NCBI GenBank assembly: GCA_965203175.1
Contig: OZ241867.1
Span: forward strand, 2,816,001-2,880,000
Length of the DNA stretch: 64,000 nt
Origin: Candidatus Latescibacterota bacterium
Lineage (GTDB): Bacteria; Latescibacterota; UBA2968; UBA8231
Direction: 5' to 3'
Part shown: positions 2,779 through 55,598 of the stretch, in pieces
How the letters are laid out: each line of letters opens with the position of its first letter
Numbering within the stretch: the stretch's first letter is position 1
Translations under genes and position numbers: made by a program
Notes under the pieces: generated by a model
Seen by the model: only the letters and a program-made list of their open reading frames with translations
Told to the model about the DNA's origin: nothing
Database searches by the model: none

Positions 2779-5700
2779 ATGGCCAAACCCAGACTACTCA
2801 ATGCGTTCTTCTTAGTCTTCGCTGCCGCGATGATTGCGGTCGTCGGTTTCGGCAATCCGGGAGCAGTCAATCGCGCGGTAAATGATTTCTTCGGCTGGGC
2901 ACCCAACCCGCCCGTAGAGGCGCGGATGGTGGATCCCGCGCAAGCCGCCGAGCTTCGCGCTTTGGTCGCTGGCATTGACGAGGCGGACATTGCCGCTGAG
3001 ATCGCGCGCTTTGCCGCCTTTGGCTCGCGGGTGCCGGGTTATGCGGGGGAGCGGCAGGCCCGCGACTACGTGCGCCAGCGGTTTGAGGCGTTGGGGCTGG
3101 AGGACGTGCAGAGCGAGGCATTTAAGGTGGCCGTGCCCATCGATCGCGGCGGCGAGTTGGTGGTGCAAGGCGGCGACAGCAAGCGGCTCTACAGCTTGTG
3201 GCCCAACGGGGTGCGCACGCCCTCGCTGGGGCCGGACGGCGTGCGCGGCCCTCTGATCTACGGAGGCCAAGGCGAGCTCGAAGCATTGGACGGCCAGCCC
3301 GTGCAAGGCAGCATCGTGCTCTTGGACTTTGCCTGCGGCCAAAACTACCTCCACGCCGCATCGCTGGGAGCCAAGGCCATCGTCTTCTTCGACAACGGTG
3401 GCGTCAACCGCGAGCAGGCCGCGGACAAGTTCCTCAAGGTACCGGTTGACATCCCGCGATTTTGGCTCGAGCGGCAAGACGCGCTCGATCTGTTGGTGCG
3501 CCTGCAAGACGGGCCGGTCGTCGTCCACTTGAATGCGCGAATGGATTGGGAAGGGGTGGAAGCGCACAACGTATATGGCTACTTGCCCGGATCGCCAGAG
3601 ATGCTGCCGGCCAAGAGCCGCGAAAAGCCGCAGGCGTGGAAAGACCAAACTATCGTCATCCAAGCCTATTACGACGCCATATCGGCCGTGCCGGCCATCG
3701 CCCCGGGAGCGGAAAACGCGGCCGGGATCGTCGCCCTGCTCCAGCTAGTGGAACTGTTCAAGGAATATCGCCCGCACTACTCGGTGCTCTTTTTGGCGAC
3801 CTCCGGGCACTTTGAGGGCCTGTCCGGGATCAACGATTTCCTCTACCGGCACAGCCGCCGCAGCGACTATTTTCGCGAGCGCATGAGCGAAGACGAACGC
3901 ATTGACTTTGACCTGATGCTATCGCTGGATCTGTCGAGCCACGCCGACCGCACGGCCAGCTTTGGCATGGGCACCTTCTACAATCCCAAGTGGCGCACTG
4001 ACAACTACGTCAAATACATGTTGACGCCCTATTCCAAGCGACTGAGCCTCGCGGTCGAAGAGACCTTTGGCGATACCACGCGCCACTACGAGGGCATTGC
4101 TCCACCCAAGCGCACGTGGAAAAACTTCATGTCCATCCCGCTCGCCTTTGCCAGCGAGGCCGCGGCCTTCGTCGGCCAGAAGGCACTCGCCCTCGCCACG
4201 GCCAATGACGCGCGCGAGCGGGTCGACACGCCGCTCGACCTGCCGGAAGCGGTGGACGCGCAAAACCTCACGCGGCAGATCCAGACGCTCGCGGCCATGT
4301 TGGCGTGGGCTGGTCGCGACGCTGAGTTGCTCAAGCCGACCAAGTTGGAGTTGGAAGACTACGGCCACAGCTTGGCGGGCGCGATCTATTGGTTCGACCG
4401 CGATGTCAATTTTGCCGTGCCCAAGAAGCCGGTGCCGCAAGCGCTGGTGACCTATCAGCAACTCGGCCCGAACTCGGTCGGCGGGGTCCGCACCCTGATC
4501 GCGCAAGAGGCCGACAACGCGGGCCGCTTCCGCTTTGACATTATGCGCAACCGACTAGACAATGCCATCCGCGCGTACGAACTCGATCCCTACGGCGAGA
4601 TTATCTCGGCACCGGACATGGGCCAAGAGGGCGACGAGACGTACCCGACTGTGCATCCGTGGGGCTGGTGGGAAAACGAGATGCTGCAAGTGCTCTTCAA
4701 GTGCCGGGCGCTGAGTCTGTTCGAGACCGTTGACTCGCGCTACCTGTCGGTTTTGGACCACATGACCGTCCTCGACGACCGCGACGGTGTGCCGCAGTCG
4801 TGGGGGGCCGACTTCGTCGAAAAGCAGAGCAATGAGGAGGGCAAGGTAACGCTCGCCTCAGTGGTGTACGCCCAGCCCGGCACTCGGGTCAAAGCCCTGA
4901 TGAGCACGAGCCTTTTCGGCGTGCGCTATCTACTGAGTGGTGCGCCCGCCGAATGGGTGGCTGAGCCGGTGCGCCCGGCCGACGTGGATGAGCCGACGAT
5001 AGAGCGGGCGCTCGGGCGCGGCTATCTGGTGGATCAAGGCGTGGTGTTGCGCCCTGGGTACGCGGCCGCGCGCGACATGTGGGTTCTCGACGATGTGCGG
5101 ATCAAGCAGTTGGCGCGCTACGGGGTGCGCAACGACAAGTTCATGCGCCTGCACGAAGAGGCGCGCTTGGCCTTGTTGGAGGCTGAAGAGCACTTGCAGG
5201 CGCGGCGCTACAGCGAGTTCAAGCGGGCCACGCGCAAGGCGTGGGGCCTCGAAGGGCGGGGCTACCCAGACATCAAATCGACTGCGGATGACACGGTTTA
5301 TGGAGTGATCTTCTACTTCGCGCTGCTGCTGCCGTTTTCGTTTTGCTGCGAGCGGCTGTTTTTCGGCTTTGCCGACATCCGCCGCCAAGTGGCGGGCGCG
5401 GCGTTTTTCTTTTTGGCGATCTTCCTCATCATGCGCTTTATCCACCCGGCCTTCAAGCTGAGTTCGTCGCCGTACATCATCTTTTTGGCCTTCGTGATCT
5501 TCGCCATTGGCGGCACGGCCCTGATGATGATCTTAGGTCGCTTTACCCGGGCCGTCGGCCAGCGCAAGCGGGCCGCTGCTGGCGTCCACGAAGCGGACAT
5601 CGGTCGTCTCAGCGCCACGGCCGCGGCTGCGTCGCTGGGGATTTCCAACCTCCGCAAGCGCAAGTTGCGCACCGCGCTGACGGTCATCACGCTGACGCTT

Positions 5701-7386
5701 TTGACCTTTACGGCCCAGGCCTTCACCTCGGTGCAGAGCTATCTCAAGTTCTATCAGATCCCCCGTCCGAATGTGCCCAGCTACGAGGGTGCCCTGCTGC
5801 GCGACCGAGGCTGGAAGGGCTTGCAGCTATCAGTGCTCGACTATGCGGAGAGCGCGTTTGGCGACCAAGCGCAGGTGCTGCCGAGGTCGTGGATTACTTC
5901 CAAGGTCATTGGCGAGCGGGCCTATATTGACATTGAGCACAAGCCGGCACAGAAGAAGAGCTTTGCCTCAGCTCTCCTAGGAGTGACCTCGGGCGAGGGT
6001 GCGCTGATGGGGTTGGAAGAGTTGTTGGTGGGGCCGGAGAGCCGTTGGTTTGCGGACGGCGAGCGCGACGTGTGCATCCTGCCAGTGGCTATGGCGGAGA
6101 TCTTGGGCATTGGCCCGGAGGACGTGGGCACGGCCCACATTGGGCTGATGGGACGGTCCTATCGGGTCATTGGCTTAATCGACGGCGAGGTAATCGATGG
6201 TCTGCGCGACTTGGACAACGAGAGTCCGATGCCGGTAGATACGGTCGCCGAGGCCAAGAAGATGGAGGAAATGGCTGGCCTGGACCCGCGCCTGATGGAC
6301 ACGGCCGCGATTGAGACCTTTACCCACCTGTTGGCCAACAACGTGGCTTTTTTGCCCTATCAGCAGGTCGTCGATTTGGGCGGGACGCTGCGCTCAATTG
6401 CCATCGCTGGCTTTACTGATCGGGAGACTTTGCTCGCCGAGGTTGAGGAATTCGTGTCGCGGGTGGCCGTGCCGCTTTTTGTTGGGGCTGGCGAGCGCGT
6501 GCGGGTGTACACGTCTATGGGATCGGCGTCCTTGGCCGGGATTGGCAATCTCTTCGTGCCCTTGTTAATCGCCTCGCTGATCGTACTCAACACCATGCTC
6601 GGGGCCGTGTACGAGCGCTCTGGCGAGATTGGGGTGTACTCGTCGGTGGGGCTGGCGCCGAGTCACATTGCCGCGCTCTTCATAGCCGAGGCCCTCGTGT
6701 TTGCCATTGTCGGTGCGGTGCTGGGCTATTTAGTGGGTCAGACGACGACGCTGCTGCTGGCGCACTACGCGCTCTTGGGCGGGATGTTTCTCAACTACTC
6801 GTCGCTGTCGGCGATTTTTTCGACCTTGGTGGTGATGGTGGTGGTGGTGCTCTCGACTCTGTATCCAGCGCGCAAGGCCGCGGCCATGGCTGTGCCCGAT
6901 GTGACGCGGCGCTGGGAGTTTCCCCCGCCCGACGGCGACGACTGGCGCTTTGATTTCCCCTTTACGCTGGGGAAGGGCGATGCCTTGGGCTCGTGCGCGT
7001 ACCTGCACCGGGTCTTCTCGTCGTATGGCGAGGGGTCGGTGGGCGACTTTATGACTGAGGGCGTGGATTTCCACTTGGAGCAGGGCGGCGTGCAGCCGGT
7101 CTATCTATTGGAACTGATGGTGTGGCTCGCACCCTACGACTTGGGCGTGAGCCAGCGGGTGTTCCTGCGCACCTTGCCGACCGACGACATTCCGGGCATT
7201 TACCGCATCGAGATGCACTTGCAGCGCGTCAGCGGCGATGTGGTGAGCTGGCAGCGGCTTAACACCAGTTTCCTCAATGTGCTGCGCAAGCGCTTCTTGG
7301 TCTGGCGGACGATTGCGCCCGAGGTGCGGGAGGAATACTTGATTGAGGGCGAGAAGTTGGCGCAGGGGACGGAAGTGGGAGTTTAG
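2779..7386 (+). CDS. M28-like (degenerate) + PA domain ectodomain fused to a MacB/FtsX-type permease, 1535 aa
   Basis: GSRVPGYAGE..ARDYV (M28 N-terminus), PA domain (GSIVLLDF..AASLGAKAIVF), AYYD..APGAENAAG..SGHFEG, TM bundle, LGISNLRKRKLRTALT (MacB-like start), LNTMLGAVYERSGEIGVYSSVGL (FtsX signature). Confidence 0.85.
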   Translation: MAKPRLLNAFFLVFAAAMIAVVGFGNPGAVNRAVNDFFGWAPNPPVEARMVDPAQAAELRALVAGIDEADIAAEIARFAAFGSRVPGYAGERQARDYVRQRFEALGLEDVQSEAFKVAVPIDRGGELVVQGGDSKRLYSLWPNGVRTPSLGPDGVRGPLIYGGQGELEALDGQPVQGSIVLLDFACGQNYLHAASLGAKAIVFFDNGGVNREQAADKFLKVPVDIPRFWLERQDALDLLVRLQDGPVVVHLNARMDWEGVEAHNVYGYLPGSPEMLPAKSREKPQAWKDQTIVIQAYYDAISAVPAIAPGAENAAGIVALLQLVELFKEYRPHYSVLFLATSGHFEGLSGINDFLYRHSRRSDYFRERMSEDERIDFDLMLSLDLSSHADRTASFGMGTFYNPKWRTDNYVKYMLTPYSKRLSLAVEETFGDTTRHYEGIAPPKRTWKNFMSIPLAFASEAAAFVGQKALALATANDARERVDTPLDLPEAVDAQNLTRQIQTLAAMLAWAGRDAELLKPTKLELEDYGHSLAGAIYWFDRDVNFAVPKKPVPQALVTYQQLGPNSVGGVRTLIAQEADNAGRFRFDIMRNRLDNAIRAYELDPYGEIISAPDMGQEGDETYPTVHPWGWWENEMLQVLFKCRALSLFETVDSRYLSVLDHMTVLDDRDGVPQSWGADFVEKQSNEEGKVTLASVVYAQPGTRVKALMSTSLFGVRYLLSGAPAEWVAEPVRPADVDEPTIERALGRGYLVDQGVVLRPGYAAARDMWVLDDVRIKQLARYGVRNDKFMRLHEEARLALLEAEEHLQARRYSEFKRATRKAWGLEGRGYPDIKSTADDTVYGVIFYFALLLPFSFCCERLFFGFADIRRQVAGAAFFFLAIFLIMRFIHPAFKLSSSPYIIFLAFVIFAIGGTALMMILGRFTRAVGQRKRAAAGVHEADIGRLSATAAAASLGISNLRKRKLRTALTVITLTLLTFTAQAFTSVQSYLKFYQIPRPNVPSYEGALLRDRGWKGLQLSVLDYAESAFGDQAQVLPRSWITSKVIGERAYIDIEHKPAQKKSFASALLGVTSGEGALMGLEELLVGPESRWFADGERDVCILPVAMAEILGIGPEDVGTAHIGLMGRSYRVIGLIDGEVIDGLRDLDNESPMPVDTVAEAKKMEEMAGLDPRLMDTAAIETFTHLLANNVAFLPYQQVVDLGGTLRSIAIAGFTDRETLLAEVEEFVSRVAVPLFVGAGERVRVYTSMGSASLAGIGNLFVPLLIASLIVLNTMLGAVYERSGEIGVYSSVGLAPSHIAALFIAEALVFAIVGAVLGYLVGQTTTLLLAHYALLGGMFLNYSSLSAIFSTLVVMVVVVLSTLYPARKAAAMAVPDVTRRWEFPPPDGDDWRFDFPFTLGKGDALGSCAYLHRVFSSYGEGSVGDFMTEGVDFHLEQGGVQPVYLLELMVWLAPYDLGVSQRVFLRTLPTDDIPGIYRIEMHLQRVSGDVVSWQRLNTSFLNVLRKRFLVWRTIAPEVREEYLIEGEKLAQGTEVGV

Positions 7387-41571: not shown

Positions 41572-44061
41572 ATGAGCGATTCGTTTGTACCGTTGGATTT
41601 GAGCGCAACTTACAACGCTGGCACTGGCAATGTTGAGTCTGAAGACGGCAAACTCTGGCCGGCACCCGACGACGCGCCCGACAATACGCCGCTCGTGGGG
41701 CTGCCCTGGGGTGAGCATCAGTTTTGGGGCGTGCCCTTTAGCTTGGCAGCCGCTGGGGCTGACCGGGCCGTGGTACTGGTAGCGCAAGAGGCTGGAGACG
41801 AGTTGAGTGCGTCGGTGGAGATCCCGGTAAACGACAAGGCGCGGCGCATCCTCTACGCCCACACTTGTGCGCCGGTGTCGGGAGAATGGGCCACGGTCGA
41901 AGGCACGGGCGAGGAGATTGGGACCTATCGCGTCCTCTATGCCGATGGTAGCTCGGTCGAGCAGCCATTGCGCCGTCGCTTTGAAATCCACGACGTGCAG
42001 ATACCTTGGGGGCATCATCCCTTTCTCTGCCGCAATTGTCGCCACTACTACTCGATACCGCTGAACAGCCGCGAGCACAGCTATGGCATGGCGCAGACTG
42101 GGGCCCTTACGCGCGAAGGCGGAGACCTCCAGGGTTGGTGGCTCTACGACTGGGAAAATCCCGCACCCGACAAGGAGATTGCGGCGATTGAAGTATCGGC
42201 GGCTGGTCCTACGGCGCTAGCTTTGGCCGGTATTACTCTCTGCCACGAGGAGTGCGATCCCTTTGCTTGGCCGGCGCGGCAGGAAGTGGTGCTACGGGTC
42301 GATGCCGAAGGAGCGCCCGAGGTGGCGATGGAGCGCGGCGAAATCGTGCGCCAGGATCAGCTCTGGGTGCCGAGCGCGGATTTTCTCACTTCCGAGGAGG
42401 CGGGCTGGGGCAGGGGTGGACAGGAGACGGTCGATGGTGGCTATCTGGAAATCCATGGATCAACAGAAGGGCAACTCGCCATCACGGCTGGGGACGACGT
42501 CGAAGAGCGCATTTGTTGGGGTGACGTGCTGAAAGAAAAGAAGGTCGCCCAGGGGAAAGTGCGTATTGAGGTCGTCGCACCGTCCGGCAAGCAGTGGGTC
42601 CACGTGCGGGTCGAGGACGCGGATACCGGCCAGCCCGTGGGAACCCGCGTCCACTTCCGCACTGAGAACGGAGCCTATCTGGCGCCGCACGGGCACCAAG
42701 CCGACGTCAATGTGGCGTGGTTCGAGGACATGGGCGGCGACTGTAAGACCGGGGGCGTGCCCTACGCGTACATCGACGGCACCTGCCAGATCGACTTGCC
42801 CATCGGCCCGGTGTACGCCGAGGTCGTGCGCGGTTTTGAATATCAGCCGCTGCGTCAGCAAGTTGAGATCAAGCCTGGACAAAACGCGCTGACCCTCAAG
42901 GTCAAACGCGCCTTTGACATGAAACAGCGCGGGTACTATTCGGGGGATACCCACGTGCATTTTCTATCCTCTCAGTCGTCGCGCCTAGAGGCCGAAGGCG
43001 AAGACCTCAATGTGGTGCATTTGTTGGCCAGCCAGTGGGGTCGGCTGTTTACTTCGTGGGAGGAGTTTACCGGCGGCTTGGCACCGACTAGCAGTGACAA
43101 TCACTTGGTTTGGGTCAGCCAGGAGAACCGGCAGCACGTACTTGGGCACATTAGTTTGCTCGGCCTCAAGGAACTGGTCGCGCCGATGTGTACCGGCGGG
43201 GCCAATGAGGATTGGGTCGGCGGCTCGGTGGATGCGCTGATGGCCGATTGGGCCGAAGAGTGCAAAAAACAGGGCGGGCTGGTCATTATGCCGCACATGC
43301 CGCTGCCCGACTTTGAGAACGCGGCCAACATCGTCTTGGGCCACGCTGACGCCGGCGAGATGTGCTGGATTTGGGAAGGCGAGCAGATCAGTTCGGCTGA
43401 GCTGGGCTACTACCGCTGGCTCAACGTGGGTCAGAAGCTGCCGATTGTCGGAGGCACGGACAAGATGTCCAATAACCGCATTTTGGGCGGCTCGCGCACG
43501 TACGTCAAGCTGCGCGATGACGAGGAGTTTACCTTTGACAATTGGTGCCAAGCCGTGCGCCGCGGTCAGACGTTTGCCAGCACTGGCGCGATGATTGATC
43601 TGAAGGTCGAGGGGCGGGAGATGGGCGAGGAAATCCACCTGCCCGGCAACGGCGGTACGGTCGAGGTGGTGGCGACCGCGGAAAGCGTCTGGCCGCTTAC
43701 TGGGCTGGAGCTGATTTGCAATGGCGAGTCTGTTGCGCGCGAAGCCGCCGCGCCCGGTGCCCAGCAGATCGAACTGAAGTTCAAGCTCAAGGCCAGTCGT
43801 TCCTGCTGGGTCGCGGCCCGCTGCTGGGGGCCACATTATACGGACGCCGGGCCGGTGATGGCCCATTCTTCGCCGGTCTATATCGACGTAGGAAGGCGCT
43901 GCGTGTTTGCGCCGGCGGAGGGCAATTATCTGCTGACGCACATGGAAGGTGGCATTGCTTGGGCCGAGAGAATCGGCGTCTTCCGCGACGAGGCGATCCG
44001 CCAGCGGCTGATTGGCCTGTTTAACGAGGCTCGGGGCGAGTTGCTCCGGCGAATGCAGTAA
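41572..44061 (+). CDS. CehA/McbA-family PHP-like metallohydrolase, paralog 2
   Basis: GDTHVHF, QENRQHVLGH, PHMP, YRWLNVG, GGTDKMS, AHSSPVY; collinear with paralog 1. Confidence 0.85.
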   Translation: MSDSFVPLDLSATYNAGTGNVESEDGKLWPAPDDAPDNTPLVGLPWGEHQFWGVPFSLAAAGADRAVVLVAQEAGDELSASVEIPVNDKARRILYAHTCAPVSGEWATVEGTGEEIGTYRVLYADGSSVEQPLRRRFEIHDVQIPWGHHPFLCRNCRHYYSIPLNSREHSYGMAQTGALTREGGDLQGWWLYDWENPAPDKEIAAIEVSAAGPTALALAGITLCHEECDPFAWPARQEVVLRVDAEGAPEVAMERGEIVRQDQLWVPSADFLTSEEAGWGRGGQETVDGGYLEIHGSTEGQLAITAGDDVEERICWGDVLKEKKVAQGKVRIEVVAPSGKQWVHVRVEDADTGQPVGTRVHFRTENGAYLAPHGHQADVNVAWFEDMGGDCKTGGVPYAYIDGTCQIDLPIGPVYAEVVRGFEYQPLRQQVEIKPGQNALTLKVKRAFDMKQRGYYSGDTHVHFLSSQSSRLEAEGEDLNVVHLLASQWGRLFTSWEEFTGGLAPTSSDNHLVWVSQENRQHVLGHISLLGLKELVAPMCTGGANEDWVGGSVDALMADWAEECKKQGGLVIMPHMPLPDFENAANIVLGHADAGEMCWIWEGEQISSAELGYYRWLNVGQKLPIVGGTDKMSNNRILGGSRTYVKLRDDEEFTFDNWCQAVRRGQTFASTGAMIDLKVEGREMGEEIHLPGNGGTVEVVATAESVWPLTGLELICNGESVAREAAAPGAQQIELKFKLKASRSCWVAARCWGPHYTDAGPVMAHSSPVYIDVGRRCVFAPAEGNYLLTHMEGGIAWAERIGVFRDEAIRQRLIGLFNEARGELLRRMQ

Positions 44062-45141: not shown

Positions 45142-46383
45142 CTACTCGGACTTCTGAGGAGTGGCTGGCGACTGGGCAAAAACGGTTGACCAGTCCATCC
45201 GACCAGTGAGCTGCATGGCGACAAAAAGGGTGGCGATGCACAGGACGGTAATGGCCAAGCCGGTATAGCCGACGAAGAAGAAGGTGTAGGAAAAGAGCAC
45301 CAAGTAGATGAATTGGGCCAAGCCAATCTCCACCAAGGCCAGCCGCAGGCCGACTACCAGACGCATGTAGGAGACGACCAAGAAAACAGACACTGCCGCA
45401 GCCAGAAAAAAGGCGTAGTGGATGAGCAAATGGTCGGCTAGATAGGCCAAAAGCAAGTGAAAGCTGAAAAAGGCCGCGCCGATGAAGAAGTAATTCATCG
45501 GATGGATGTCGATGCCTTTGACCGTGGCAAAGACGAAGAGAACAAAGAAAAAGAGAAAGAGGGATATGGGCGCGGCTTGGGTCACGTCTTGTACCCAAGG
45601 ACCTGGATTGAGGCGGGCAGGCATGACCATGCCGAGGGAAGCCCCAGTGAGCAGGCGGTCGTACTGCCAAGTGAGACGCCAGCCATCGGCGGTGCGCTCC
45701 TTTTGAGTGGGTGCTAGGCTTTCGCGCGGGAAGTCGATGGCGTCGAAATCAGTGTGCATAACCAATTCAAAGTCGGAGACTTGCTCGACGTGGTCGCCGA
45801 AGCGGTACCACCATTCTTCTAAACCCTGCGATTGATAGGAAAGACGGATCTGGCGACTCTGGCCCGGCGCTAAGTGCAACGGCTGTTGCAAGTGCCCTTC
45901 TGCCAGCGGCAGCGGGGCGATGGGTTGGCCGTCGATGGACAGGGTGAAATCATCGTACACAGCTTGGGAAGTAGGCAGGGCTAGATCGAACGTCAGGTCT
46001 AGGGGATAGTCGGTCTCGTTGGTCGCAGTATAGGTGGCGTTCAGTGCCACTTGGTAGGTGGAGTACCACAGCAGGCCCTTGCGGCGGTGTTCGAGGTGTA
46101 GATCGACTTGTAGGCGGCTGGCTTCTAGGGGCAGGAGATGTCGCCGCTCTTTGGAGTGCTCTGTCGCTTGGCCGTCAGGGGTCTGTGTGACGACGGTTTC
46201 CTCAGTGGTCCAGTACAGGAGGGGGGCGCGTTGGGACTGAGAAGTGCCCCACAATTGGCCCACCGCGGCTTTGAGCTTGGTGTCTTGCTGGTGGGTGCGG
46301 TGCGAGACGACCTGTGCCAAGATGATCCAAGCGACACTTGTGCAGGCAAAGATAAAGCCGATAGCGGCAATGCGGTATAGCAT
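45142..46383 (-). CDS. CreD-like inner membrane protein
   Basis: N-terminal TM helix, periplasmic domain with RRKGLLWY, C-terminal TM bundle with IHPMNY..F..FHLLLAYL.DH; GAAGGAGG RBS before ATG 46383. Confidence 0.72.
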   Translation of the reverse strand: MLYRIAAIGFIFACTSVAWIILAQVVSHRTHQQDTKLKAAVGQLWGTSQSQRAPLLYWTTEETVVTQTPDGQATEHSKERRHLLPLEASRLQVDLHLEHRRKGLLWYSTYQVALNATYTATNETDYPLDLTFDLALPTSQAVYDDFTLSIDGQPIAPLPLAEGHLQQPLHLAPGQSRQIRLSYQSQGLEEWWYRFGDHVEQVSDFELVMHTDFDAIDFPRESLAPTQKERTADGWRLTWQYDRLLTGASLGMVMPARLNPGPWVQDVTQAAPISLFLFFFVLFVFATVKGIDIHPMNYFFIGAAFFSFHLLLAYLADHLLIHYAFFLAAAVSVFLVVSYMRLVVGLRLALVEIGLAQFIYLVLFSYTFFFVGYTGLAITVLCIATLFVAMQLTGRMDWSTVFAQSPATPQKSE

Positions 46384-46545
46384 GGAGCCCTCCTTCAACT
46401 GCGTTTGAACGTCTCGCCGATAGCTAAAGTTCCGCGTATAGATAAAGTAATCGCCTCAGGGGCGGTCCTCCAGCCAGTGCTGAAAGAAGCCGCGTCCGTC
46501 GGTTTGCTTGCTAGACGGAATGCTTGGGGCCGATATTGGAACGCT

Positions 46546-49500
46546 ATGACTGCGCTGATTGCCTTTTTGGTCGTTTTTGCTATCGGCCCGGTGGCGGCTT
46601 CTACAGGGCCGCGGGCTGTTGTGGAGCATCTGTCCTCGCTGGGATCGCGGGTGGCGGGCTATCCGGGGAGTGCTCAGGCGGCGGAGTATATAGAAGGGCA
46701 GTTGCAGGCGTTGGGACTGGCGACGCGACGCGACTCCTTTGCGGTGGTGGTGCCGATGGACCGGGGCGGACGGTTGGAATGGGAAGATGAGTCGGTCGCT
46801 TTGTACGCGGTGTGGCCGAATGGGGTGCGGACTTCGACCGTGCCGCCGGAGGGGTTGCGAGTGCCAGCGATTTGGGGTGGTGATGGGAATTGGGGGGATT
46901 TTAATGGGCGGGAGGTGGCTGGGCGGGTGGTGGTGCTGGACTTTGCCAGTGAGGACGCTTGGTTGAAGGCCGCGTCGTTGGGGGCGCGGGCGGTGGTGTT
47001 TGTGGCTGCGGAGTCGGCTACTACGCAGCAGGCGCAGGGCAAGTACGTGCAGGTACCGTTGGATGTGCCGCGCTTTTGGGTGGAGGGGGCCGCTGGGGAG
47101 CGGCTGCGGCGGCGGTTGGTAGATGGAGAGGTGGAGGTGGGGCTGTGGGGGCGGATGGATTGGCAGAAGCGGATGGCGTACAACGTGTGGGCGGTAGTGC
47201 CGGGGAAGGATGCGGGGACCTTGCGGGATAAGACAGTGCTCGTCCATGCGTATTACGACGCGCCGTCGGTGGTGCCCGCGCGAGCACCAGGGGCAGAGGC
47301 GGCGGTGAGCGTAGCGGCGCTGTTGGAGGTGGCCACTCGCTTGCGAGAGAACCCACCGGCGCACACGGTGATACTCGCCGCGCTGAGTGCCCACTTCCAA
47401 GGGCGGCAGGGCATGGTCGCCTTTCTCGACAGGCACGCCCGCCGCCAAGAGCACTACGCGGCCCGGCTCGCCGAGCCGCTGGATATTGCCCTGTTCATTG
47501 GCCTCGATTTGTCCAGCCACGGCGAGCGGGTGGTGCTGTGGAACAACACGGACAGCTACGCGCTCAAGCGGTTTTTCGTGCCCTTTGGCCGTCGCTTTAC
47601 CGAGTACGCGGAGGCACTGGGCCGCGGCGAGGCAGTGGCCAATGGCATCAGCCCAATTCGGGGGATGGATTGGGACAGCTACATGCCCGGGGGGTTGGCC
47701 GCCGATGGGGAGTTGGCGCTCGAGGCGGGATTTCCGTCGCTGACGCTGGCCACGGTGGGCGACGCTCGTTTTGCGCTGGATTTGCCGCTGGGCGAGAAAC
47801 TGGCGTGGGATAATGTGGAAGGACAGGCGGCGTTAGTGGCCGATCTGCTGGCTCATGCGTTGGCCGATACGGCGCTATTGGCTGGGCGGGAGCGGCTCGA
47901 GGCGGTGTTGAAAGATCGGTTGCGGGATTTGCGGGTCAAAGCGCGGACGTTCCCCCGGCGCAGTCAGGTGCCGGACCGGCCGGTGGCCGGGGCGCTGGTG
48001 GCGGTGCAGGTGGAGCAAGAAGAGCGCAAAGGAGTGCGCGACGTGCGCTACTTTCTCACGGATGCCGCTGGGCTGGCGCGGGTACCTGGGCTGGTACAGG
48101 GGACGTATCCGCTGGTGGTAGCGGTGCTGAACGCCGAGCGGGGGACGCTTACTCACGTAGTGAACTTGAGTAAGCGCGCGCAAGCGCACCACGGGAAACC
48201 GCGGGCGGATGGTCGCTTGGCCAAGAATGTGCGCTGGCTGCAAAACGAGCAGATCGCCGTGCTATTTCCCGGAGTGGGTCGTCCCCTGTACGGCTTGGTC
48301 GAGCCGCGCCTTTTGCGCGCGTTGAACCAAGTAAAAGTGTTGTCGGCGGCCGGGAGCGAGCCGGGCCAGTACGGGTACGCGCTGGGTTCAAGCAGCATCG
48401 GCTCGGTGGGGGTGATCTACGGGCCGGTCGATGCCACAGCCGGCGACCGCGTCAAAGTGATTTTGGACGGTCAGTTTTTGCTGCTCAACAGCGAGGGCAG
48501 CCAAAGCGAGGCCGAGGCGCGGGGCCAGGGGTTTCTGCTGATCGAGGAGGGATTTGGGAGCGCGACGCTACAGGCGGCGCGGGACCTGTGGAACTTGGAT
48601 GCGGCGCGGTTGGGGATACTCAAGGAGCACGGCATTGAAAATCAGCGGTTGACGCGCCTGCACGCGCAGACGGCGACGGCCATAGCCGAGGCGGAAGTAG
48701 CGGCTGAGCAGCTAAAGTGGGATGAGCACGTGGCGTGGAGCCGCAAGGCGCTGGGCTTGGAGACGCGGGCCTATCCAGAGGTCTTGGCGACGCTCAACGA
48801 CGTCCTCGAAGGGGTGATCTTCTTTATGGCGCTGTTGTTGCCGGCAGCCTTTTTCGGGGAGCGGCTGTTGTTTGCCGCGGCCGATATTCGCCGGCAGCTC
48901 GCTGGCTTTGGGCTGTTATTGCTGGCGATTTGGCTGATTTTGGCGCAGGTGCATCCAGCCTTTGAGTTGGCCGAGCCGCTGGTGGTGCTGTTGGCGTTTG
49001 CCATCATGGCAATGGCTGCCTTCGTGCTCTTTATGCTGGTAAGCCGGTTCAATCGCGTCATGGCCCAGCACCAGAGCCAACAGATGCGGGTCCACACCCA
49101 AGACCTGAGTCGCTTGAGCGCGAGTTATGCGGCCTTCATGTTGGGGATTTCCAATATGCGGCGGCGCCCCTTGCGCACCGGTCTGACACTGGCGACGCTG
49201 ACGCTTTTGACGTTTACCCTGCTCTCTTTTACCTCGTTTGAACAGCAAATCCGCTACGCGAGTTTCCGGCTGCCTCACGCTGGAGCGTACCCCGGAATCC
49301 TCATCCGCGACCGCGGCTGGGAGCGCCTGACGCCGGAGGCGCTCGATTACGCCGAGTCGCACTTTGGCGGCAGCGGCTGGATGGGGCGGCGCGGTTGGTA
49401 CGCGGCCGAAGGCGGCAAGGGAGGCTGGATCGCGGTGGCGGCAGCAGGGAACGCAGTGCGGGCCACGGGTTTGTTGGGCCTGACGCCGGAGGAGGCGCAG

Positions 49501-52500
49501 ATCACCGAGGTGGATAAGAGCTTGGTGGCCGGGTCGTTTTTTGCCGCGGATGACGAGGCTACCTGCATCCTGCCATTGGACATGGCTGAGGCGTTGGGCG
49601 TCGGGGTTGGGGACCAGATCGAGGTGTTCGGGCGCGCGCTGGAGGTGCGCGGGATTGCCGACTCAGAGCGGTTGGGTGAATTGCGCGACCTCGACGACGA
49701 GAGCATGATGCCAGCCGATTTTGTCCTGTCGAGCGCAGAGATGCTTCAGCTAGGGACGGCGCAGGACGTGGATATTGCCAGCGAGGAGGAGCTACGCGAA
49801 CTGCGGCCCTTCATCCACCTAAAGCCGCACCACGTGGTCCTCGTACCCTATCAAACGCTGGCCGAGGCCGGGGGCAGCTTGCGCTCGGTGGCCGTGCGCT
49901 TTCCAGAAGCGACCGACGGGCAGGCGCTGGTCGAGGACTATCTGACGCGGGTAGCGGTTACCTTGTTCGTCAGCTCGCCGGCAGGGGAGGTGATGGCCCT
50001 CAGTTCGGTGGGACTGACGGCTGTGCAGGGGCTGGGGGCGCTGGCGATTCCTGCGCTGGTGGCCGCACTCATTGTACTCAATGCGATGCTGGGGGCGGTG
50101 TACGAACGCCTGCGCGAGATCGGCATCTACTCTTCGGTGGGGCTGGCACCCTTGCACATCGCGCTGCTGTTTGTGGCCGAAGCCTGTGTCTATGCGGTGC
50201 TGGGGACGACGTTGGGCTATTTGTTGGGTCAGGGGTTGGGGAAGGTGCTGTTGGCGCTGGGGCTGTTGCAGGGCATTACCCTGAACTACTCGTCGCTGGC
50301 GGCGATTGGGGCCGCGCTGGCGGTGATGGGGGTGGTGTTGCTATCGACGATCTATCCGGCGCGGCAGGCGGCGCGGCAGGCGGTGCCAGACGTGGTGCGT
50401 CGCTGGCGGCCGGACCCGCCCAGCGGCGACGAGTGGCTGTTTGAGTTCCCCTTCATGCTCGGTGAGGGAGAGGTCGAGGGGGTGTGCGGCTTTTTGGCCA
50501 ACTACTTTGGGGCCTTTGGTCGGGCGACGCTGGGGGATTTTTACGTCGAGGATATGCAAGTTGCGCAGGCCGATGGCTATCGCCTCTCGTTTACCCTATG
50601 GCTGGCCCCGTTTGACTTGGGAGTGAGCCAAGAGGTGGTCGTGGAGTTCGCGTCGGCTGGTGCGCGCACGCGGGCGATGGAAGTCCGGTTGCGCCGACTG
50701 AGTGGCGAGCATCACTACTGGCAGCGGCTCAACCTGCGGCTGGTAGAGGCCCTGCGCAAGCAGATGTTGATTTGGTACGCACTCCGGGAGGCCGAGCGCG
50801 TCCAGCACGTGGAGTCAGCGCGGGCGCTGGCAGCCGAGCAGACCGAGGAGCGCGTGGAGGAACAATCGGGAGCGGAATCGCCGGTGTCCTTTACTTGGCG
50901 GGGGTTTGCCGTGGGGGCGCTGTTGGCCTTGTGCATCGGCGTGGGGGCACCCTACGCGATAATTATGCTGCAAGGGTCGTACATGGCGCTCAACAGTTCG
51001 TCACCCGGGGCGATCTTTCTGTTTTTTATCTTGGTGGTGGTGGTCAATACCCTGCTACGGGCGCTGGGCCGCGGCCTCGCCTTGGGGCGGGCCGATTTGG
51101 TGCTCATTTACGCGATGATGCTGTTGGCCTCGGCCGTGCCGACGCAGGCATTTGTCGGCTACCTGATTCCGATCATCAGCGGGCTGTACTACTACGCGAC
51201 CCCGGAAAACAACTGGGGTGACATTTTCTTTCCGCACGTGACGCCGTGGCTGGCGCCGCAGGACCGACAGGCGATTGTCGATTTGCACGAGGGGCTGCCG
51301 CCCGGGGAGGGCATTCCGTGGGCGGCTTGGAGCGAGACCCTGAGCTATTGGTACGTGTTCTTTTTAGTGCTGAGTTTTATGATGCTCTGCATGAGTTCCA
51401 TCCTGCACCGGCAGTGGTCGCAGCACGAGCGGCTGGCCTATCCCATGGTGCAACTGCCGCTCAAGATGGTAGAGGAGGGCCGGCCGGGGTCTAAGCTGGG
51501 GCCGCTTTTTAAGCAGCGGCTGTTGTGGATCGGCTTTGCGGTGCCGTTTGTCTTGTTGTCGCTCAAGGGGCTGCACTACTACTTCCCGGCAGTGCCACTG
51601 CCGATCCAGTCGGCTGGGCAACTGCCGTGGATCGGCACTAAGCTGAATTCGCATTGGGTGTATGCGTGGATCGGCTTTTTCTATTTGGTCAACTTGGATA
51701 TTTCCTTTTCAATTTGGTTTTTCTACCTCTTCAACAAGGCGCAAGAGGGGATTTTCTCCTCGTTGGGCATTGCCAGTACCGAAAAGCTCAGTCTCTACTC
51801 CTACTCGCAGACTGCGGATCTGACGCACGAGGTGATGGGGGCCTGTCTGATTTTTGTTGGCTATACCTTGTGGATGGGGCGGCGGCACTTGGGGGCGGTA
51901 TGGCGCAAGGCGTGGCGCGGCGATCCGACGGTGGATGATTCAGGAGAAATGCTTTCCTATCGGGTGGCGTTCTTTGGCTTTTTGGCCAGCCTGCTTTTCG
52001 TGGGCGTGTGGCTGTGGGCGTCTGGGGTGCCGCTGGCGATTTTGCCGCTGTTTTTGCTAGTGTGCTTGATCTTCTACGTGTTCGTCACGCGGGCAGTAGC
52101 CACGGCCGGACTAGCGACGGCGCGCTCGCCGATGGTGGCGGCGTTTTTCGTCATTTCCGCGGTTGGCGCACCGGTGATTGGTGCCAAGGGGCTGACGGCC
52201 CTGACCTTTACCTACGTCTGGCAGTCTGAGATGCGGCTTTTTCCGATGATTGCCGCGGCCAATTCGCTCAAGCTGGCCGAGGCGGTGGTTGGCTCTAAAA
52301 GGCGGCTGTTTTGGGGGATGGCGCTGGCGTTGGTGGTGAGTTTAGCCGGGGCGACGTGGATTATTTTTCAGGTGTGCTATGAGCACGGCGGGATCAATTT
52401 GCATCCGTTTTTTATGACCCGTCAGGCCAATCGCACGTTTACCGATATGGCGCGGCCGATCGTCGATCCGCTGCCAGCCGATATGCGCGGTTGGTTGTTC

Positions 52501-52803
52501 ACCGGCATCGGCGGACTCTTTGAGGCCGTGCTCTTGTGGGGACATCATCGGTTTTACTGGTGGCCGTTGCACCCGCTGGGGTTTATCGTCAGCGTTGGCT
52601 GGCTGGCTAATCAGGTGTGGTTTTCGGTGTTCATCGCGTGGGCGCTCAAGTTGGGCATTGTCAAGTGGGGTGGGATGCCGCTCTACGAGCGGGCCAAGCC
52701 CTTTTTCCTAGGGCTGATTTTGGGCGAGGCGACCGCGGCCGGATTGTGGCTGTGCATCGATGGCGTGTTGGAAGAAACCGGGCATTTTCTGTCGTATATG
52801 TGA
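46546..52803 (+). CDS. ~2085-aa fusion: degenerate M28/PA ectodomain + MacB/FtsX permease + DUF6785/6784-type multipass domain
   Basis: N-terminal ~1430 aa are collinear with 2779..7386 and C-terminal ~640 aa with <1..1803; one uninterrupted frame with a charged linker at ~50790-50890; signal peptide at ATG 46546. Confidence 0.85.
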   Translation: MTALIAFLVVFAIGPVAASTGPRAVVEHLSSLGSRVAGYPGSAQAAEYIEGQLQALGLATRRDSFAVVVPMDRGGRLEWEDESVALYAVWPNGVRTSTVPPEGLRVPAIWGGDGNWGDFNGREVAGRVVVLDFASEDAWLKAASLGARAVVFVAAESATTQQAQGKYVQVPLDVPRFWVEGAAGERLRRRLVDGEVEVGLWGRMDWQKRMAYNVWAVVPGKDAGTLRDKTVLVHAYYDAPSVVPARAPGAEAAVSVAALLEVATRLRENPPAHTVILAALSAHFQGRQGMVAFLDRHARRQEHYAARLAEPLDIALFIGLDLSSHGERVVLWNNTDSYALKRFFVPFGRRFTEYAEALGRGEAVANGISPIRGMDWDSYMPGGLAADGELALEAGFPSLTLATVGDARFALDLPLGEKLAWDNVEGQAALVADLLAHALADTALLAGRERLEAVLKDRLRDLRVKARTFPRRSQVPDRPVAGALVAVQVEQEERKGVRDVRYFLTDAAGLARVPGLVQGTYPLVVAVLNAERGTLTHVVNLSKRAQAHHGKPRADGRLAKNVRWLQNEQIAVLFPGVGRPLYGLVEPRLLRALNQVKVLSAAGSEPGQYGYALGSSSIGSVGVIYGPVDATAGDRVKVILDGQFLLLNSEGSQSEAEARGQGFLLIEEGFGSATLQAARDLWNLDAARLGILKEHGIENQRLTRLHAQTATAIAEAEVAAEQLKWDEHVAWSRKALGLETRAYPEVLATLNDVLEGVIFFMALLLPAAFFGERLLFAAADIRRQLAGFGLLLLAIWLILAQVHPAFELAEPLVVLLAFAIMAMAAFVLFMLVSRFNRVMAQHQSQQMRVHTQDLSRLSASYAAFMLGISNMRRRPLRTGLTLATLTLLTFTLLSFTSFEQQIRYASFRLPHAGAYPGILIRDRGWERLTPEALDYAESHFGGSGWMGRRGWYAAEGGKGGWIAVAAAGNAVRATGLLGLTPEEAQITEVDKSLVAGSFFAADDEATCILPLDMAEALGVGVGDQIEVFGRALEVRGIADSERLGELRDLDDESMMPADFVLSSAEMLQLGTAQDVDIASEEELRELRPFIHLKPHHVVLVPYQTLAEAGGSLRSVAVRFPEATDGQALVEDYLTRVAVTLFVSSPAGEVMALSSVGLTAVQGLGALAIPALVAALIVLNAMLGAVYERLREIGIYSSVGLAPLHIALLFVAEACVYAVLGTTLGYLLGQGLGKVLLALGLLQGITLNYSSLAAIGAALAVMGVVLLSTIYPARQAARQAVPDVVRRWRPDPPSGDEWLFEFPFMLGEGEVEGVCGFLANYFGAFGRATLGDFYVEDMQVAQADGYRLSFTLWLAPFDLGVSQEVVVEFASAGARTRAMEVRLRRLSGEHHYWQRLNLRLVEALRKQMLIWYALREAERVQHVESARALAAEQTEERVEEQSGAESPVSFTWRGFAVGALLALCIGVGAPYAIIMLQGSYMALNSSSPGAIFLFFILVVVVNTLLRALGRGLALGRADLVLIYAMMLLASAVPTQAFVGYLIPIISGLYYYATPENNWGDIFFPHVTPWLAPQDRQAIVDLHEGLPPGEGIPWAAWSETLSYWYVFFLVLSFMMLCMSSILHRQWSQHERLAYPMVQLPLKMVEEGRPGSKLGPLFKQRLLWIGFAVPFVLLSLKGLHYYFPAVPLPIQSAGQLPWIGTKLNSHWVYAWIGFFYLVNLDISFSIWFFYLFNKAQEGIFSSLGIASTEKLSLYSYSQTADLTHEVMGACLIFVGYTLWMGRRHLGAVWRKAWRGDPTVDDSGEMLSYRVAFFGFLASLLFVGVWLWASGVPLAILPLFLLVCLIFYVFVTRAVATAGLATARSPMVAAFFVISAVGAPVIGAKGLTALTFTYVWQSEMRLFPMIAAANSLKLAEAVVGSKRRLFWGMALALVVSLAGATWIIFQVCYEHGGINLHPFFMTRQANRTFTDMARPIVDPLPADMRGWLFTGIGGLFEAVLLWGHHRFYWWPLHPLGFIVSVGWLANQVWFSVFIAWALKLGIVKWGGMPLYERAKPFFLGLILGEATAAGLWLCIDGVLEETGHFLSYM

Positions 52804-52925: not shown

Positions 52926-55598
52926 ATGCGGAGCATGGATGCGGACTTGGCCGGTCTAATGCGCCTATTGGGGACGGCGGCCCTGAGCCTCGTCCTCGTC
53001 AGTTCGCTCGTCATCGGGCAGGCGGCATGGTCCGAGGAAGCTGAGACGGAGGAAGAGGACGAGGAAGGGGCCTATACCGAGGACATCTATCTGATGGAAG
53101 AAGCCATCGTCGTGGGGTCGCGCCACGCGCCGCGCTCGGAGAAGGAGTCGGCCGCGCCCGTAGATGTGCTGAATGCCGACCAACTGCGCACGCAGGCTGC
53201 GGTCGATATGGACGACATGCTGCGCACCCTGGCTCCGTCGTACAATATTCAGCGGCACGGTATTGACGACGAAGCGACCTTGGTGCGCCCGGCCACGCTG
53301 CGGGGCCTGCCGCCGGACAACCTGCTGGTGCTGGTCAACGGCAAGCGCCGCCATCGCTCCGGCGTAATCGCACTGCTGGGCAGTTCGCTCAATACGGGGT
53401 CGCAAGGGCCGGATTTGAGCGTGATCCCGGCCATTGCCTTGACGCAAATGGAACTGCTGCGCGACGGCGCGGCGGCCCAGTACGGATCCGACGCCATCGC
53501 CGGGGTGCTGAATCTGCGATTGCGCGAAGCCTCCGAAGGGGTGCTAATGGAATCGCGAGCAGGCCAGTACTTCGAGGGCGACGGCCGCTTGTCCCAAGTC
53601 GCGGCCAATGTCGGCCTGCCGCTTAGCGAGGACGGTTTTTTCAACGTCAGCGTCGAGTACCGCCAGAGCGATCCAACCATCCGCAGTGGTCAACGCACCA
53701 ATGCGGAGACGCTGAGAAATAGGGGCTATCCTGTCAAAGAGCCGGCGCAGATTTGGGGCAGTCCCGACCTCGACGGCGTGTGGAATACTTTTTTCAACAG
53801 TGGAGTTGATCTCGGCAATGGATCTGAAGCCTATAGCTTCGGTGGCTGGGCCAAGCGCCGCGCCGAAGGAGGCTTTTTCTTTCGCGCTCCGGGTACTTCC
53901 TCGGCGCGCAGCAGCGTATTTCGCATTGGCGATCAGCGGGCCGTAGCCGATCTCGATCCCGACGACGATGTTGATCCTGCGAACTTGGAAGTGCCCTCTC
54001 TGGACGCGCCCTTCCAAGAGGTCGAGGGTTTTGTCGAGCAGTATAAGGACGATCTCTTCCTATTCAACGAGCGCTTTCCCGGTGGTTTTACGCCGCGCTT
54101 TGGAGCCGACATCCTCGATATGAGCTTGGTGGCTGGCCTGCGCAGTGCCCGCTCTGGCGGCCTCAAGTGGGATGCCAGTGTCAGCGCCGCCCGCAGCAAT
54201 ATCGAATTTTTCATCTTCAATACCATCAACGCCTCGCTGGGGCCGGACACGCCGACATCGTTCCGCCCGCGCGACTACATCCAGACCGAAGTCGCGGCCA
54301 ACCTCGACTTCTCCTACGCGATGGAGGTGGGTGGTTTGGCCTCGCCGCTCGGCCTCGCTTGGGGTGCGGAATGGCGCCAAGAGACGTTCGAGTCCGTGGC
54401 TGGCGATGAAGCCTCCTACGTGGTGGGCCCCTTTGCGCCCCAGGGCTTTAGCAGCGGTTCCAATGGCTATCAGGGGCTGCACCCAAGTAACGCCGGCAAG
54501 TGGGATCGCCCCAACTATGCCTTGTACGTGGATTTGCAGGCAGACGTAGTGCCGCAGCTCCAGCTAGGCACGGCCGTGCGCTACGAGGATTTCTACGCCG
54601 ATTTTGGCAATACCCTCAACGGCAAGCTCTCGGCCCTGTTGCGGGCTAGCGACCGGGTCAACCTGCGCTCGACGGTTAGCACTGGGTTCCGCGCTCCGTC
54701 GCCCGGCCAGGCCAATCTCCGCGCCGTGACCACCGGCTTTTCCGGCACCGGCGGCTTGACTGAGCAGGGGCAGGTGCCGCCCACCCATCCCATAGCCGCG
54801 GCCTTGGGCGGTGAGGAACTGACTGAGGAGAAGTCCGTGGGATTTTCCGTCGGCACCGCCATGGAACTCACCGACGATTTCGATCTGACCCTCGACTACT
54901 TCGCCATTGACATCGAGGACCGCATCGCCCTGACCGGAAATATCAAGATCACCGACCAAATCGCCCAGATCATCCGGGACGATGAATCCCTCCAGGGCGT
55001 CAGCGTCCTCCAAGAGGTCAAGTTCTTCTCCAATGACTTTGATACCCGCACCCAGGGTATTGACTTGGTGCTGTCGTGGACGCGGACGTGGAACCCCCAA
55101 TCCCTGTCTCACATCGATGTCGCCTATAACTGGACCCGGACCACGCTTGAGGACTTTTCGCAAGAGCGGACAAGAGACGAATTTCTGGGCAAACCCTTGG
55201 ACGAACCGATCAAATTCAAACTGATGACGCCCCGGCGCGAGGTGGAACTGGAGGAAATGAACCCCGAGCACCGCTTGGTGGTTACCGGCAGTCACCAAAT
55301 GGGCGCTTGGAGCGGTATGCTGCGGCCCAGCTACTTCAGCGCTTGGAAAGCCTGCCGCTTCCAAGACAACAGTTGCGGTGATCTCGACGCCTTTGACGGA
55401 GGCGTCATTGTCGATGCCGAAATAGGCTATGCCTTTGGCGATAGCTATCAGTTGAGCTTGGGGGCGCAGAATATTTTAGACTCAGTGCCCGAAACCGCGC
55501 CCGAAGAGACCGCAGGCCAGGGCAATCTGCGCCCGGAAAGCACGCCTTGGGATTACAATGGTGCTTTCTGGTACACGCGCTTATTTGTGGAATTTTAG
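52926..55598 (+). CDS. TonB-dependent receptor, substrate unknown
   Basis: GGAGG RBS; VVGSR, LRGLPPD..LVLVNGKRRH, LRDGAAAQYGSDAIAGVLN; C-terminal Phe. Confidence 0.93.
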   Translation: MRSMDADLAGLMRLLGTAALSLVLVSSLVIGQAAWSEEAETEEEDEEGAYTEDIYLMEEAIVVGSRHAPRSEKESAAPVDVLNADQLRTQAAVDMDDMLRTLAPSYNIQRHGIDDEATLVRPATLRGLPPDNLLVLVNGKRRHRSGVIALLGSSLNTGSQGPDLSVIPAIALTQMELLRDGAAAQYGSDAIAGVLNLRLREASEGVLMESRAGQYFEGDGRLSQVAANVGLPLSEDGFFNVSVEYRQSDPTIRSGQRTNAETLRNRGYPVKEPAQIWGSPDLDGVWNTFFNSGVDLGNGSEAYSFGGWAKRRAEGGFFFRAPGTSSARSSVFRIGDQRAVADLDPDDDVDPANLEVPSLDAPFQEVEGFVEQYKDDLFLFNERFPGGFTPRFGADILDMSLVAGLRSARSGGLKWDASVSAARSNIEFFIFNTINASLGPDTPTSFRPRDYIQTEVAANLDFSYAMEVGGLASPLGLAWGAEWRQETFESVAGDEASYVVGPFAPQGFSSGSNGYQGLHPSNAGKWDRPNYALYVDLQADVVPQLQLGTAVRYEDFYADFGNTLNGKLSALLRASDRVNLRSTVSTGFRAPSPGQANLRAVTTGFSGTGGLTEQGQVPPTHPIAAALGGEELTEEKSVGFSVGTAMELTDDFDLTLDYFAIDIEDRIALTGNIKITDQIAQIIRDDESLQGVSVLQEVKFFSNDFDTRTQGIDLVLSWTRTWNPQSLSHIDVAYNWTRTTLEDFSQERTRDEFLGKPLDEPIKFKLMTPRREVELEEMNPEHRLVVTGSHQMGAWSGMLRPSYFSAWKACRFQDNSCGDLDAFDGGVIVDAEIGYAFGDSYQLSLGAQNILDSVPETAPEETAGQGNLRPESTPWDYNGAFWYTRLFVEF

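Follow-up and report, generated by a model that had tools for sequence, protein, structure and literature searches.

Introduction

Nicastrin of gamma-secretase, nicalin of the BOS complex, GPAA1 of the GPI transamidase and the transferrin receptor (TfR) all carry a head of the M28 metallopeptidase fold without a working dizinc site, and it is mainly in eukaryotes that membrane complexes with such catalysis-less heads have been described. In bacteria, the M28 fold is represented by aminopeptidases with a protease-associated (PA) domain inserted into the M28 core, among them the enzymes of Aneurinibacillus AM-1 (PDB 2ek8), Bacillus subtilis (BSAP/YwaD, 6hc6), Pseudomonas aeruginosa (PaAP, 8acg) and Shewanella (3iib), and by the PA-less prototype AAP (1amp/1rtq). 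Here we analyze a stretch of 64,000 nucleotides from a Candidatus Latescibacterota bacterium (GenBank assembly GCA_965203175.1, contig OZ241867.1, positions 2,816,001 to 2,880,000 of the forward strand; C1:2816001-2880000), which is referred to as the window and whose first letter is position 1. An open reading frame (ORF) at 2779..7386 (+) encodes, according to its translation, P0001, a giant membrane protein of 1535 amino acids (aa), and a second one at 46405..52803 (+) encodes P0002, a paralog of 2132 aa with the same giant architecture. An earlier note on this DNA had read positions 2980-4330, which correspond to aa 68-517 of P0001, as an M28 domain that has lost its zinc-binding and catalytic residues, and had suggested that it might be a prokaryotic relative of nicastrin and nicalin.

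Fold and closest relatives of the head domain

The N-terminal head of P0001 is a true homolog of the bacterial PA-domain M28 aminopeptidases. Alignment and folding used aa 40-560 (2896..4458, +), a PA and M28-fold ectodomain that contains the whole segment discussed in the earlier note. The Pfam family Peptidase_M28 (PF04389) matches all 27 members of a family sample (best E 1e-12), and the P0001 domain reaches 27.5 bits against a cut-off of 21.3. The PA insert (aa 155-236; 3241..3486, +; PF02225) scores just below its cut-off of 23.9 bits when the whole of P0001 is searched (E 6.8e-5, 23.4 bits) and 25.4 bits with the isolated domain, and it is found in 21 of the 27 members. When a profile of these 27 domains was searched against all PDB sequences, it matched 2ek8 with an E-value of 2.2e-13 (53 bits), BSAP with 2.9e-8 and AAP with 4.7e-7 to 1.4e-5, while TfR was detected at 2.4e-3 through its N-terminal/PA part. 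An hhalign comparison of the family with the canonical M28 proteins of the same genome gave a probability of 99.7% (E 1.8e-25).

An AlphaFold2 (AF2) model of aa 40-560 was obtained with a predicted local distance difference test score (pLDDT) of 81.4 and a predicted template modelling score (pTM) of 0.84, and its confidence is low only at the ends and in two inserts peculiar to the family (model residues 359-376 and 402-411). Foldseek against the PDB ranked the PA-M28 aminopeptidases first (2ek8 at 1.8e-24, then PaAP, BSAP and 3iib), followed by TfR at about 1e-20 and GCPII at about 1e-17. Structural alignment with VIA-align against the 1000 best Foldseek chains gave AAP (1amp) a Z-score of 29.0, with a root-mean-square deviation (rmsd) of 2.6 Å over 271 of 291 residues. 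Against all 48,161 representatives, AAP scored Z 28.9, and the rmsd over both searches was 2.6-2.7 Å for 271-272 residues. LapB (27.6) and 2ek8 (27.3) came close to it in this larger search, in which the glutaminyl cyclases reached 24-26, TfR 25.9, GCPII 22.7, the M20 enzymes 18-22 and GPAA1 18.9, rank 50 lying at Z 17.7.

The head thus shares with the PA-M28 aminopeptidases the fold and the domain order, with the PA domain inserted into the M28 core, and with the PA-less AAP the M28 fold itself, the structural matches to aminopeptidases lying at Z 27-29. It also retains the motif scaffold of the bacterial M28 aminopeptidases, namely xYD, PGA-acid, G-L-x-G, L-D and DTPxD. Unlike these enzymes, the family has other residues at three of the five zinc-ligand positions, Glu instead of the bridging Asp and His as the general base residue, and the two inserts mentioned above are its own. 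A further difference from the soluble secreted M28 enzymes is that the head is fused to approximately 1000 additional residues, which include an FtsX module.

Loss of the dizinc site and conservation of the pocket

Residue equivalences were taken from HMMER alignments of P0001 and of the 27-member family profile to solved aminopeptidases, and the AAP numbers for motifs 1 to 3 were counted from the chain coordinates of the PDB alignments. In motif 1 (AYYD, aa 296-299; 3664..3675, +), Y297 replaces the zinc ligand His97 of AAP, while D299 corresponds to Asp99 and is kept. In motif 2 (APGAENAAG, from aa 308; 3700..3726, +), the PGAE-N stretch lies opposite the PGAD-D-D stretch of AAP that holds the bridging Asp117. 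Here, E312 is found at or beside the position of the bridging Asp: MAFFT and hhalign alignments with the three canonical M28 proteins of the genome place it exactly opposite, with a one-residue deletion just before it, and the hmmsearch alignment shifts the pairing by one residue. In motif 3 (SGHFEGL, aa 342-348; 3802..3822, +), H344 takes the place of the general base Glu151 and F345 that of the zinc ligand Glu152. The corresponding motifs of P0002 (47248..47406, +) read AYYD (47248-47259), APGAEAAVS (with APGAE from 47284) and SAHFQGR (47386-47406). The motif readings of the earlier note were thus recovered in both paralogs where it had placed them.

For the last two zinc ligands of AAP, Asp179 and His256, MAFFT and global hhalign are unreliable beyond the EE motif, and we infer the mapping from the motifs and the order of helices and strands. 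D384 (3928..3930, +) would be the counterpart of Asp179, and hence a kept ligand, since in the model it lies at the end of strand E340-345, the first one behind the helices following motif 3. The pair E460-A461 (4156..4161, +) would correspond to the Asp-His of the last M28 motif, with A461 at the position of His256 and the ligand His lost, because its surroundings, S-E-A...F..G, resemble the canonical S-D-H..F...G of the genome's own M28 proteins. The conserved C-terminal M28-type motif region R479...D483-T-P-x-D487 (4213..4239, +) aligns, at low score, with its counterpart in 2ek8 and BSAP. Three canonical M28 genes of the same genome, which served as a control, have kept their HxD, D-N-A-S/A-G, EE and SDH motifs intact.

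We then followed these positions through a family alignment of 266 proteins, namely those of 308 whose domain spans the core, with a mean pairwise identity of 40%. Position 297 is Tyr in 178, His in 49 and Phe in 29 of the 266 domains, and position 312 is Glu in 231 and Asp in 19. D299 is present in 265 and D384 in 260. At the Glu151 position, H344 is conserved in 263 domains, and Glu or Asp occurs there in a single one. Position 345 is Phe in 205, His in 18 and Tyr in 13 domains and is never Glu. E460 is kept in 236 domains; the following position is Ala in 148 and Val in 42 and is in no case His. In the C-terminal region, R479, the Pro and D487 are each found in 263 domains and D483 in 244. 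The canonical set of five ligands (His, Asp, Glu, Asp, His) occurs in none of the 266 domains, the last two positions being taken from the inferred mapping, and the general-base Glu expected of an active M28 enzyme has given way to a nearly invariant His.

To judge from these sequences, the co-catalytic dizinc site is lost throughout the family, and its Zn1 half is apparently erased by the changes of Glu152 to Phe and, with the mapping described above, of His256 to Ala. The claim of the earlier note that the zinc and catalytic residues are gone is borne out in this respect, and the substitutions that it saw in both paralogs hold through the whole alignment. They are not due to chance, since P0001 and P0002, which are 38% identical across 1476 aa, as well as 266 domains of 40% mean identity, keep them. 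At the same time, few columns of the domain are conserved as strongly as the former active-site positions. The pocket positions D299, E312, H344, D384, E460, R479 and D487 are 87-100% conserved, and for five of them (D299, H344, D384, R479 and D487) conservation reaches at least 98% despite the low overall identity, which indicates that selection still acts on the pocket. A pocket that is remodelled and functional fits better than a decayed one, because the shell of the old active site belongs to the best conserved parts of the domain. This agrees with a caveat of the earlier note, according to which conserved new residues might form a different site. Its description of the domain as a pseudo-peptidase rather than an aminopeptidase is plausible, but the pocket appears to be remodelled and not dead.

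Relation to nicastrin and nicalin

A passage of a gamma-secretase review (PMC2647162) regards the nicastrin ectodomain as derived from a peptidase. Kinship of the head with nicastrin and nicalin could mean that it is a prokaryotic sister or ancestor of these eukaryotic ectodomains. All of them are M28-fold heads of membrane complexes, and the family profile does detect nicalin among the PDB sequences, with E-values of 3.5e-5 (26 bits) and 9.7e-5 over only 56 profile positions. When P0001 itself is aligned with nicalin, no gap occurs between the HxD-type and the GA-acid motif. In addition, the Pfam family Nicastrin (PF05450) gives a weak match in 7 of the 27 members, with a best E-value of 0.047. 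However, active bacterial M28 enzymes score far better (2.2e-13 for 2ek8 and 2.9e-8 for BSAP), nicalin does not surpass AAP, and the nicastrin chains of the PDB are not significant by the family profile (E 1.1-1.2). Moreover, in the alignment with P0001 nicalin keeps the His of motif 1 and the Asp of motif 2, where the family has Tyr and Glu. The active-site substitutions are therefore not common to the family and nicalin.

Neither nicastrin nor nicalin is found among the best 50 matches of each of the three fold searches (Foldseek against the PDB and the two VIA-align searches), to which the scores are confined; these matches are active M28 and M20 enzymes, glutaminyl cyclases, TfR, GCPII and GPAA1. 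A 76-aa query covering the motifs of P0002 retrieved no M28 protein, nicastrin or nicalin from the PDB at E <= 10. The earlier note had proposed a Foldseek comparison, in which active aminopeptidases top the matches listed, and had named a head no closer to nicastrin and nicalin than to ordinary M28 proteins as the outcome that would speak against its idea. By its sequence, the head is in fact much closer to the bacterial PA-M28 aminopeptidases, and we consider a specific kinship with the eukaryotic ectodomains to be highly improbable.

The resemblance to nicastrin, nicalin, GPAA1 and TfR would accordingly be a functional analogy at most: in each case an M28-fold ectodomain seems to have been reused as the non-catalytic outer head of a membrane protein or complex. 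The substitutions and the membrane partners, here an FtsX module and OPT-fold permeases, are different, and the pocket of the present family is highly conserved.

The FtsX-type module and the absence of an ATPase gene nearby

The order of elements in P0001 is a signal-anchor transmembrane segment (TM), the PA/M28-like ectodomain, a beta-rich middle region, a cluster of three TMs, a MacB/FtsX-type module and a C-terminal domain. Hydropathy analysis yields hydrophobic segments at aa 6-24, 839-857, 871-889, 898-916, 1252-1270, 1297-1315 and 1343-1361. We count eight TMs, of which these seven exceed the hydropathy threshold in P0001, while the eighth (aa ~965-985) exceeds it only in P0002. The layout thus consists of an N-terminal anchor (aa 6-24), three TMs at aa 839-916, a weaker TM at ~965-985 and three FtsX TMs at aa 1252-1361, and from this TM count the ectodomain (aa ~26-835) is predicted to be periplasmic.

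The MacB/FtsX-type module (5656..6894, +) is composed of one TM, a putative periplasmic core domain and three TMs. The Pfam family FtsX (PF02687; cut-off 25.5 bits) matches P0001 with 50.6 bits at aa 1260-1370 and P0002 with 49.3 bits. MacB_PCD (PF12704) reaches 25.3 bits in P0002, below its cut-off of 27, is not listed for P0001 and is present in the precomputed annotation of several homologs; NCBIfam gives weak matches to MacB, LolC and LolE. The module is followed by a C-terminal domain of ~160 aa (aa 1373-1535; 6895..7383, +), which is predicted to be cytoplasmic by TM count and is also conserved in P0002. This domain has no match in Pfam or NCBIfam and no usable match in the ESM Atlas.

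With the type VII ATP-binding cassette (ABC) permeases MacB, LolC/LolE and FtsX, the giant has in common the C-terminal FtsX domain and possibly a MacB-like periplasmic core between the first and the last three TMs of the module. It differs from them by the absence of an ATPase gene in cis, the giant N-terminal ectodomain, three extra TMs, the unique C-terminal domain and an OPT-fold neighbour. No ABC ATPase, searched for as ORFs with a Walker-A and a signature motif, is encoded within 10 kb of any of the seven giants of the genome. Genome-wide, 55 such ORFs were found, and the distance to a giant is 15 kb or less for just one of them (10 kb). Among 80 related loci, ABC-motif ORFs occur in a single one (L039), where they are a UvrA and an Opp-type ATPase 7.9 kb away and unrelated.

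The OPT-fold partner

The gene upstream of P0001 (1..1803, +), whose 5' end is cut by the window and whose full-length product has 634 aa, carries the Pfam families DUF6785 and DUF6784 (2e-97 and 2.7e-22, respectively). In P0002, the same two families are fused to the C-terminus of the giant (aa 1497-2124; 50893-52776). An AF2 model of the full-length upstream gene product (pLDDT 88.7, pTM 0.89) was submitted to Foldseek, and barley HvYS1 (7wsr/7wst) was the sole match at E <= 0.001, with an E-value of 2.4e-7 and a TM-score of 0.66-0.71 over ~600 residues; the next match had an E-value of 0.037 and a probability of 0.13. Pfam assigns only DUF6785/DUF6784 and not OPT (PF03169), and a family profile made from an alignment of 21 paralogs had no match among the PDB sequences. 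The relation to OPT proteins follows from the fold search, which matches HvYS1 only, sequence searches alone being blank. By its predicted structure, the partner is an OPT/Yellow-Stripe-fold permease, which has the fold in common with the OPT/Yellow-Stripe-like HvYS1 without a match at the level of sequence. A need for a receptor subunit is not known for OPT proteins.

The genome (6.58 Mb, one contig) encodes seven giants, each of which either is fused to a DUF6785-like ORF or lies within 1 kb of one. Among the 80 related loci, a DUF6785-like ORF was found within 5 kb in 52 by hidden Markov model search and a second polytopic membrane gene within the same distance in 47, and 72 carry a DUF6785-like and/or this second OPT-like gene. 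In the ESM Atlas, the second membrane gene lies beside 'peptide transporter' clusters that are partly annotated as OPT (score 0.98).

Proposed role of the giant and alternative explanations

Taken as a whole, these results suggest, with a likelihood that we put slightly above even, a non-classical head with a ligand-recognising pocket that serves an OPT-fold permease by way of an FtsX scaffold. The head of P0001 would be the periplasmic part of a giant inner-membrane protein and would no longer act as a classical co-catalytic aminopeptidase. Its remodelled pocket (D299, E312, H344, D384, E460, R479, D487), with the PA domain as a lid, may recognise a periplasmic ligand, most simply a free peptide end or another OPT-type substrate, and the head would present this ligand to the partner permease or gate its entry. 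The FtsX module would then act as a membrane scaffold or transmission element. A bolder version of this proposal, which we regard as unlikely, holds that Glu312, His344 and Asp384, together with Tyr or His at position 297, would make up a receptor of a new, single-site type that binds either a peptide end or a metal chelate. The giant would then be the first known periplasmic substrate receptor for secondary transporters of the OPT/Yellow-Stripe fold, to which it might be coupled mechanically via its ATPase-less FtsX module.

Several observations weigh against the proposed role. The link between giant and partner rests on gene order and fusion, and close orthologs abound among the 80 loci, 22 of which show at least 92% identity, so that the counts given above overstate their independence. 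Eight of these loci have no partner; seven are cut short at contig ends, and one (L021) is of full length. The genome contains 56 DUF6785/DUF6784-like ORFs, several of them in tandem pairs, of which only eight lie within 5 kb of giants or are fused to them; most copies presumably work without a giant, since the rest stand alone. The OPT-like nature of the second partner is a lead only, suggested by feature similarity in the ESM Atlas, Pfam being blank for it. An ATPase encoded in trans could act on the FtsX module. Residual or altered hydrolysis by the head is also possible, because the Zn2-type triad (His, Asp/Glu, Asp) is retained in full in 47 of the 266 domains and the title of PDB entry 2anp calls a Glu151-to-His mutant of AAP 'functional'.

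The last of these points leads to the main rival explanation, in which the head is still an enzyme whose mononuclear or metal-independent site (E312, H344 and D384 plus Tyr or His 297) trims peptides, or cleaves another bond, in the periplasm and feeds the products to the OPT-fold importers. Apart from the retained triads and the AAP mutant, the strong conservation of H344, D384 and E312, which are among the best conserved residues of the domain, is in line with this idea, as are the Z-scores of the glutaminyl cyclases, which work with one zinc on an M28-type fold. On the other hand, Zn1 has the higher affinity of the two sites in AAP, and its half is erased in every one of the 266 domains, none of which has Glu at the Glu152 position or His at the His256 position, and the Phe tolerated at position 297 in 29 domains shows that this position is not an essential ligand. 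A surviving enzyme appears to us rather unlikely, though likelier than the other rivals. If, instead, the M28-like head were a structural relic, a spacer or a dimerisation platform without a ligand pocket, the loss of the dizinc site would be readily understood, and the similarity to TfR (Z 25.9) would fit, as TfR illustrates that such heads can be protein-binding platforms. The pocket of a relic should drift, yet the pocket positions are held at 87-100% in a family of 40% identity, which makes this explanation very improbable.

A different reading starts from the membrane part. Known FtsX-type modules work with ATPases of the FtsE, LolD or MacB type, and the giant could be a mechanotransducer of the type VII ABC class (MacB-, Lol- or FtsEX-like) with its ATPase encoded elsewhere, the head acting on an envelope substrate in export, extraction or activation and the OPT-like neighbours being secondary. 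The FtsX and MacB-type matches are as expected for such a protein, and the 55 ABC-motif ORFs of the genome would offer candidates for the missing subunit. None of them lies within 10 kb of the seven giants, however, and those found in the related loci are unrelated. Furthermore, the conserved and sometimes fused neighbour is an OPT-fold protein, and the family-specific C-terminal domain occupies a position where known FtsX proteins have none. We see only a small chance for the mechanotransducer.

The giants represent a widespread bacterial and independently arisen case in which the M28 fold has probably been reused as the head of a membrane complex, with at least 612 representative clusters at E <= 1e-30 and seven copies in this genome. 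A head that serves these permeases as a receptor or as an unusual enzyme would mean a new architecture by which uncultured Latescibacterota and Gemmatimonadota take up nutrients or metals, and DUF6785 and DUF6784 would acquire a function. The main interest lies in the undescribed module of head, FtsX and OPT-fold parts, for which the natural fusion P0002 with its 2132 aa is a ready target for cryo-electron microscopy.

Occurrence of the family and neighbouring genes

A word-indexed search yielded 527 relatives at E <= 0.001 among 7999 scored candidates, mostly of ~1530 aa and mostly from metagenome-assembled genomes of Latescibacterota, Gemmatimonadota and Planctomycetota. In an exhaustive search of cluster representatives, 1759 were found at E <= 0.001, 1255 at <= 1e-10 and 612 at <= 1e-30. 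A search for shorter proteins returned 40 matches, almost all of them fragments of the same family, and no free-standing form of the head was found among them. In a sample of the phylum, 108 of 121 genomes carry the family, including 44 of the 52 high-quality ones, with 1 to 11 matches per genome. It occurs in 13 of the 14 taxonomic families sampled, the remaining one having none in its 13 genomes, which are 64-97% complete. A literature search, from which supplements were left out, found no paper on the giant family or on DUF6785/DUF6784. At one locus (L055:10001-11576), the tblastn range reads with 17 stop codons in the given frame, which may reflect a frameshift, a broken copy or an offset, and this locus was left out of the family alignment.

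The 56 DUF6785/DUF6784-like copies constitute a very large expansion of one transporter-like family in a single genome. A paralog subgroup of giants, which are ~1630 aa long and have 27 residues inserted behind motif 3, has no DUF6785 neighbour and was seen in about 20 loci. Its downstream neighbour (e.g., L039:14724-16778) is a membrane protein of 684 aa with at least 11 TMs and no Pfam match, whose neighbours in the ESM Atlas are OPT-annotated clusters. The present genome has five genes of this type near giants, one of them at C1:2809765-2811825, 6 kb before the window.

Within the window, a gene for a eukaryotic-type (alpha) carbonic anhydrase (1794-2588, -; Pfam 8.5e-45) lies between the DUF6785 partner and P0001. 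At locus L002, which is 97% identical, this gap is occupied by a PIN-domain gene and a small ORF, so the spacer between the partner gene and the giant is variable. An 829-aa ORF at 41572-44061 (+) has no Pfam family at E <= 0.001. A divergent gene for a CreD-like inner-membrane protein (45142-46398, -) lies ahead of P0002, and a TonB-dependent receptor gene (52926-55598, +) lies after it. Under the bolder version of the proposal above, this receptor gene behind the fused form of the giant would hint at an uptake route from the outer to the inner membrane. Three family members of 2769-3053 aa (P0128, P0129 and P0130) are extended at the N-terminus, ahead of the M28-like head, by ~1100-1200 residues that include bacterial Ig-like (Big_5) domains.

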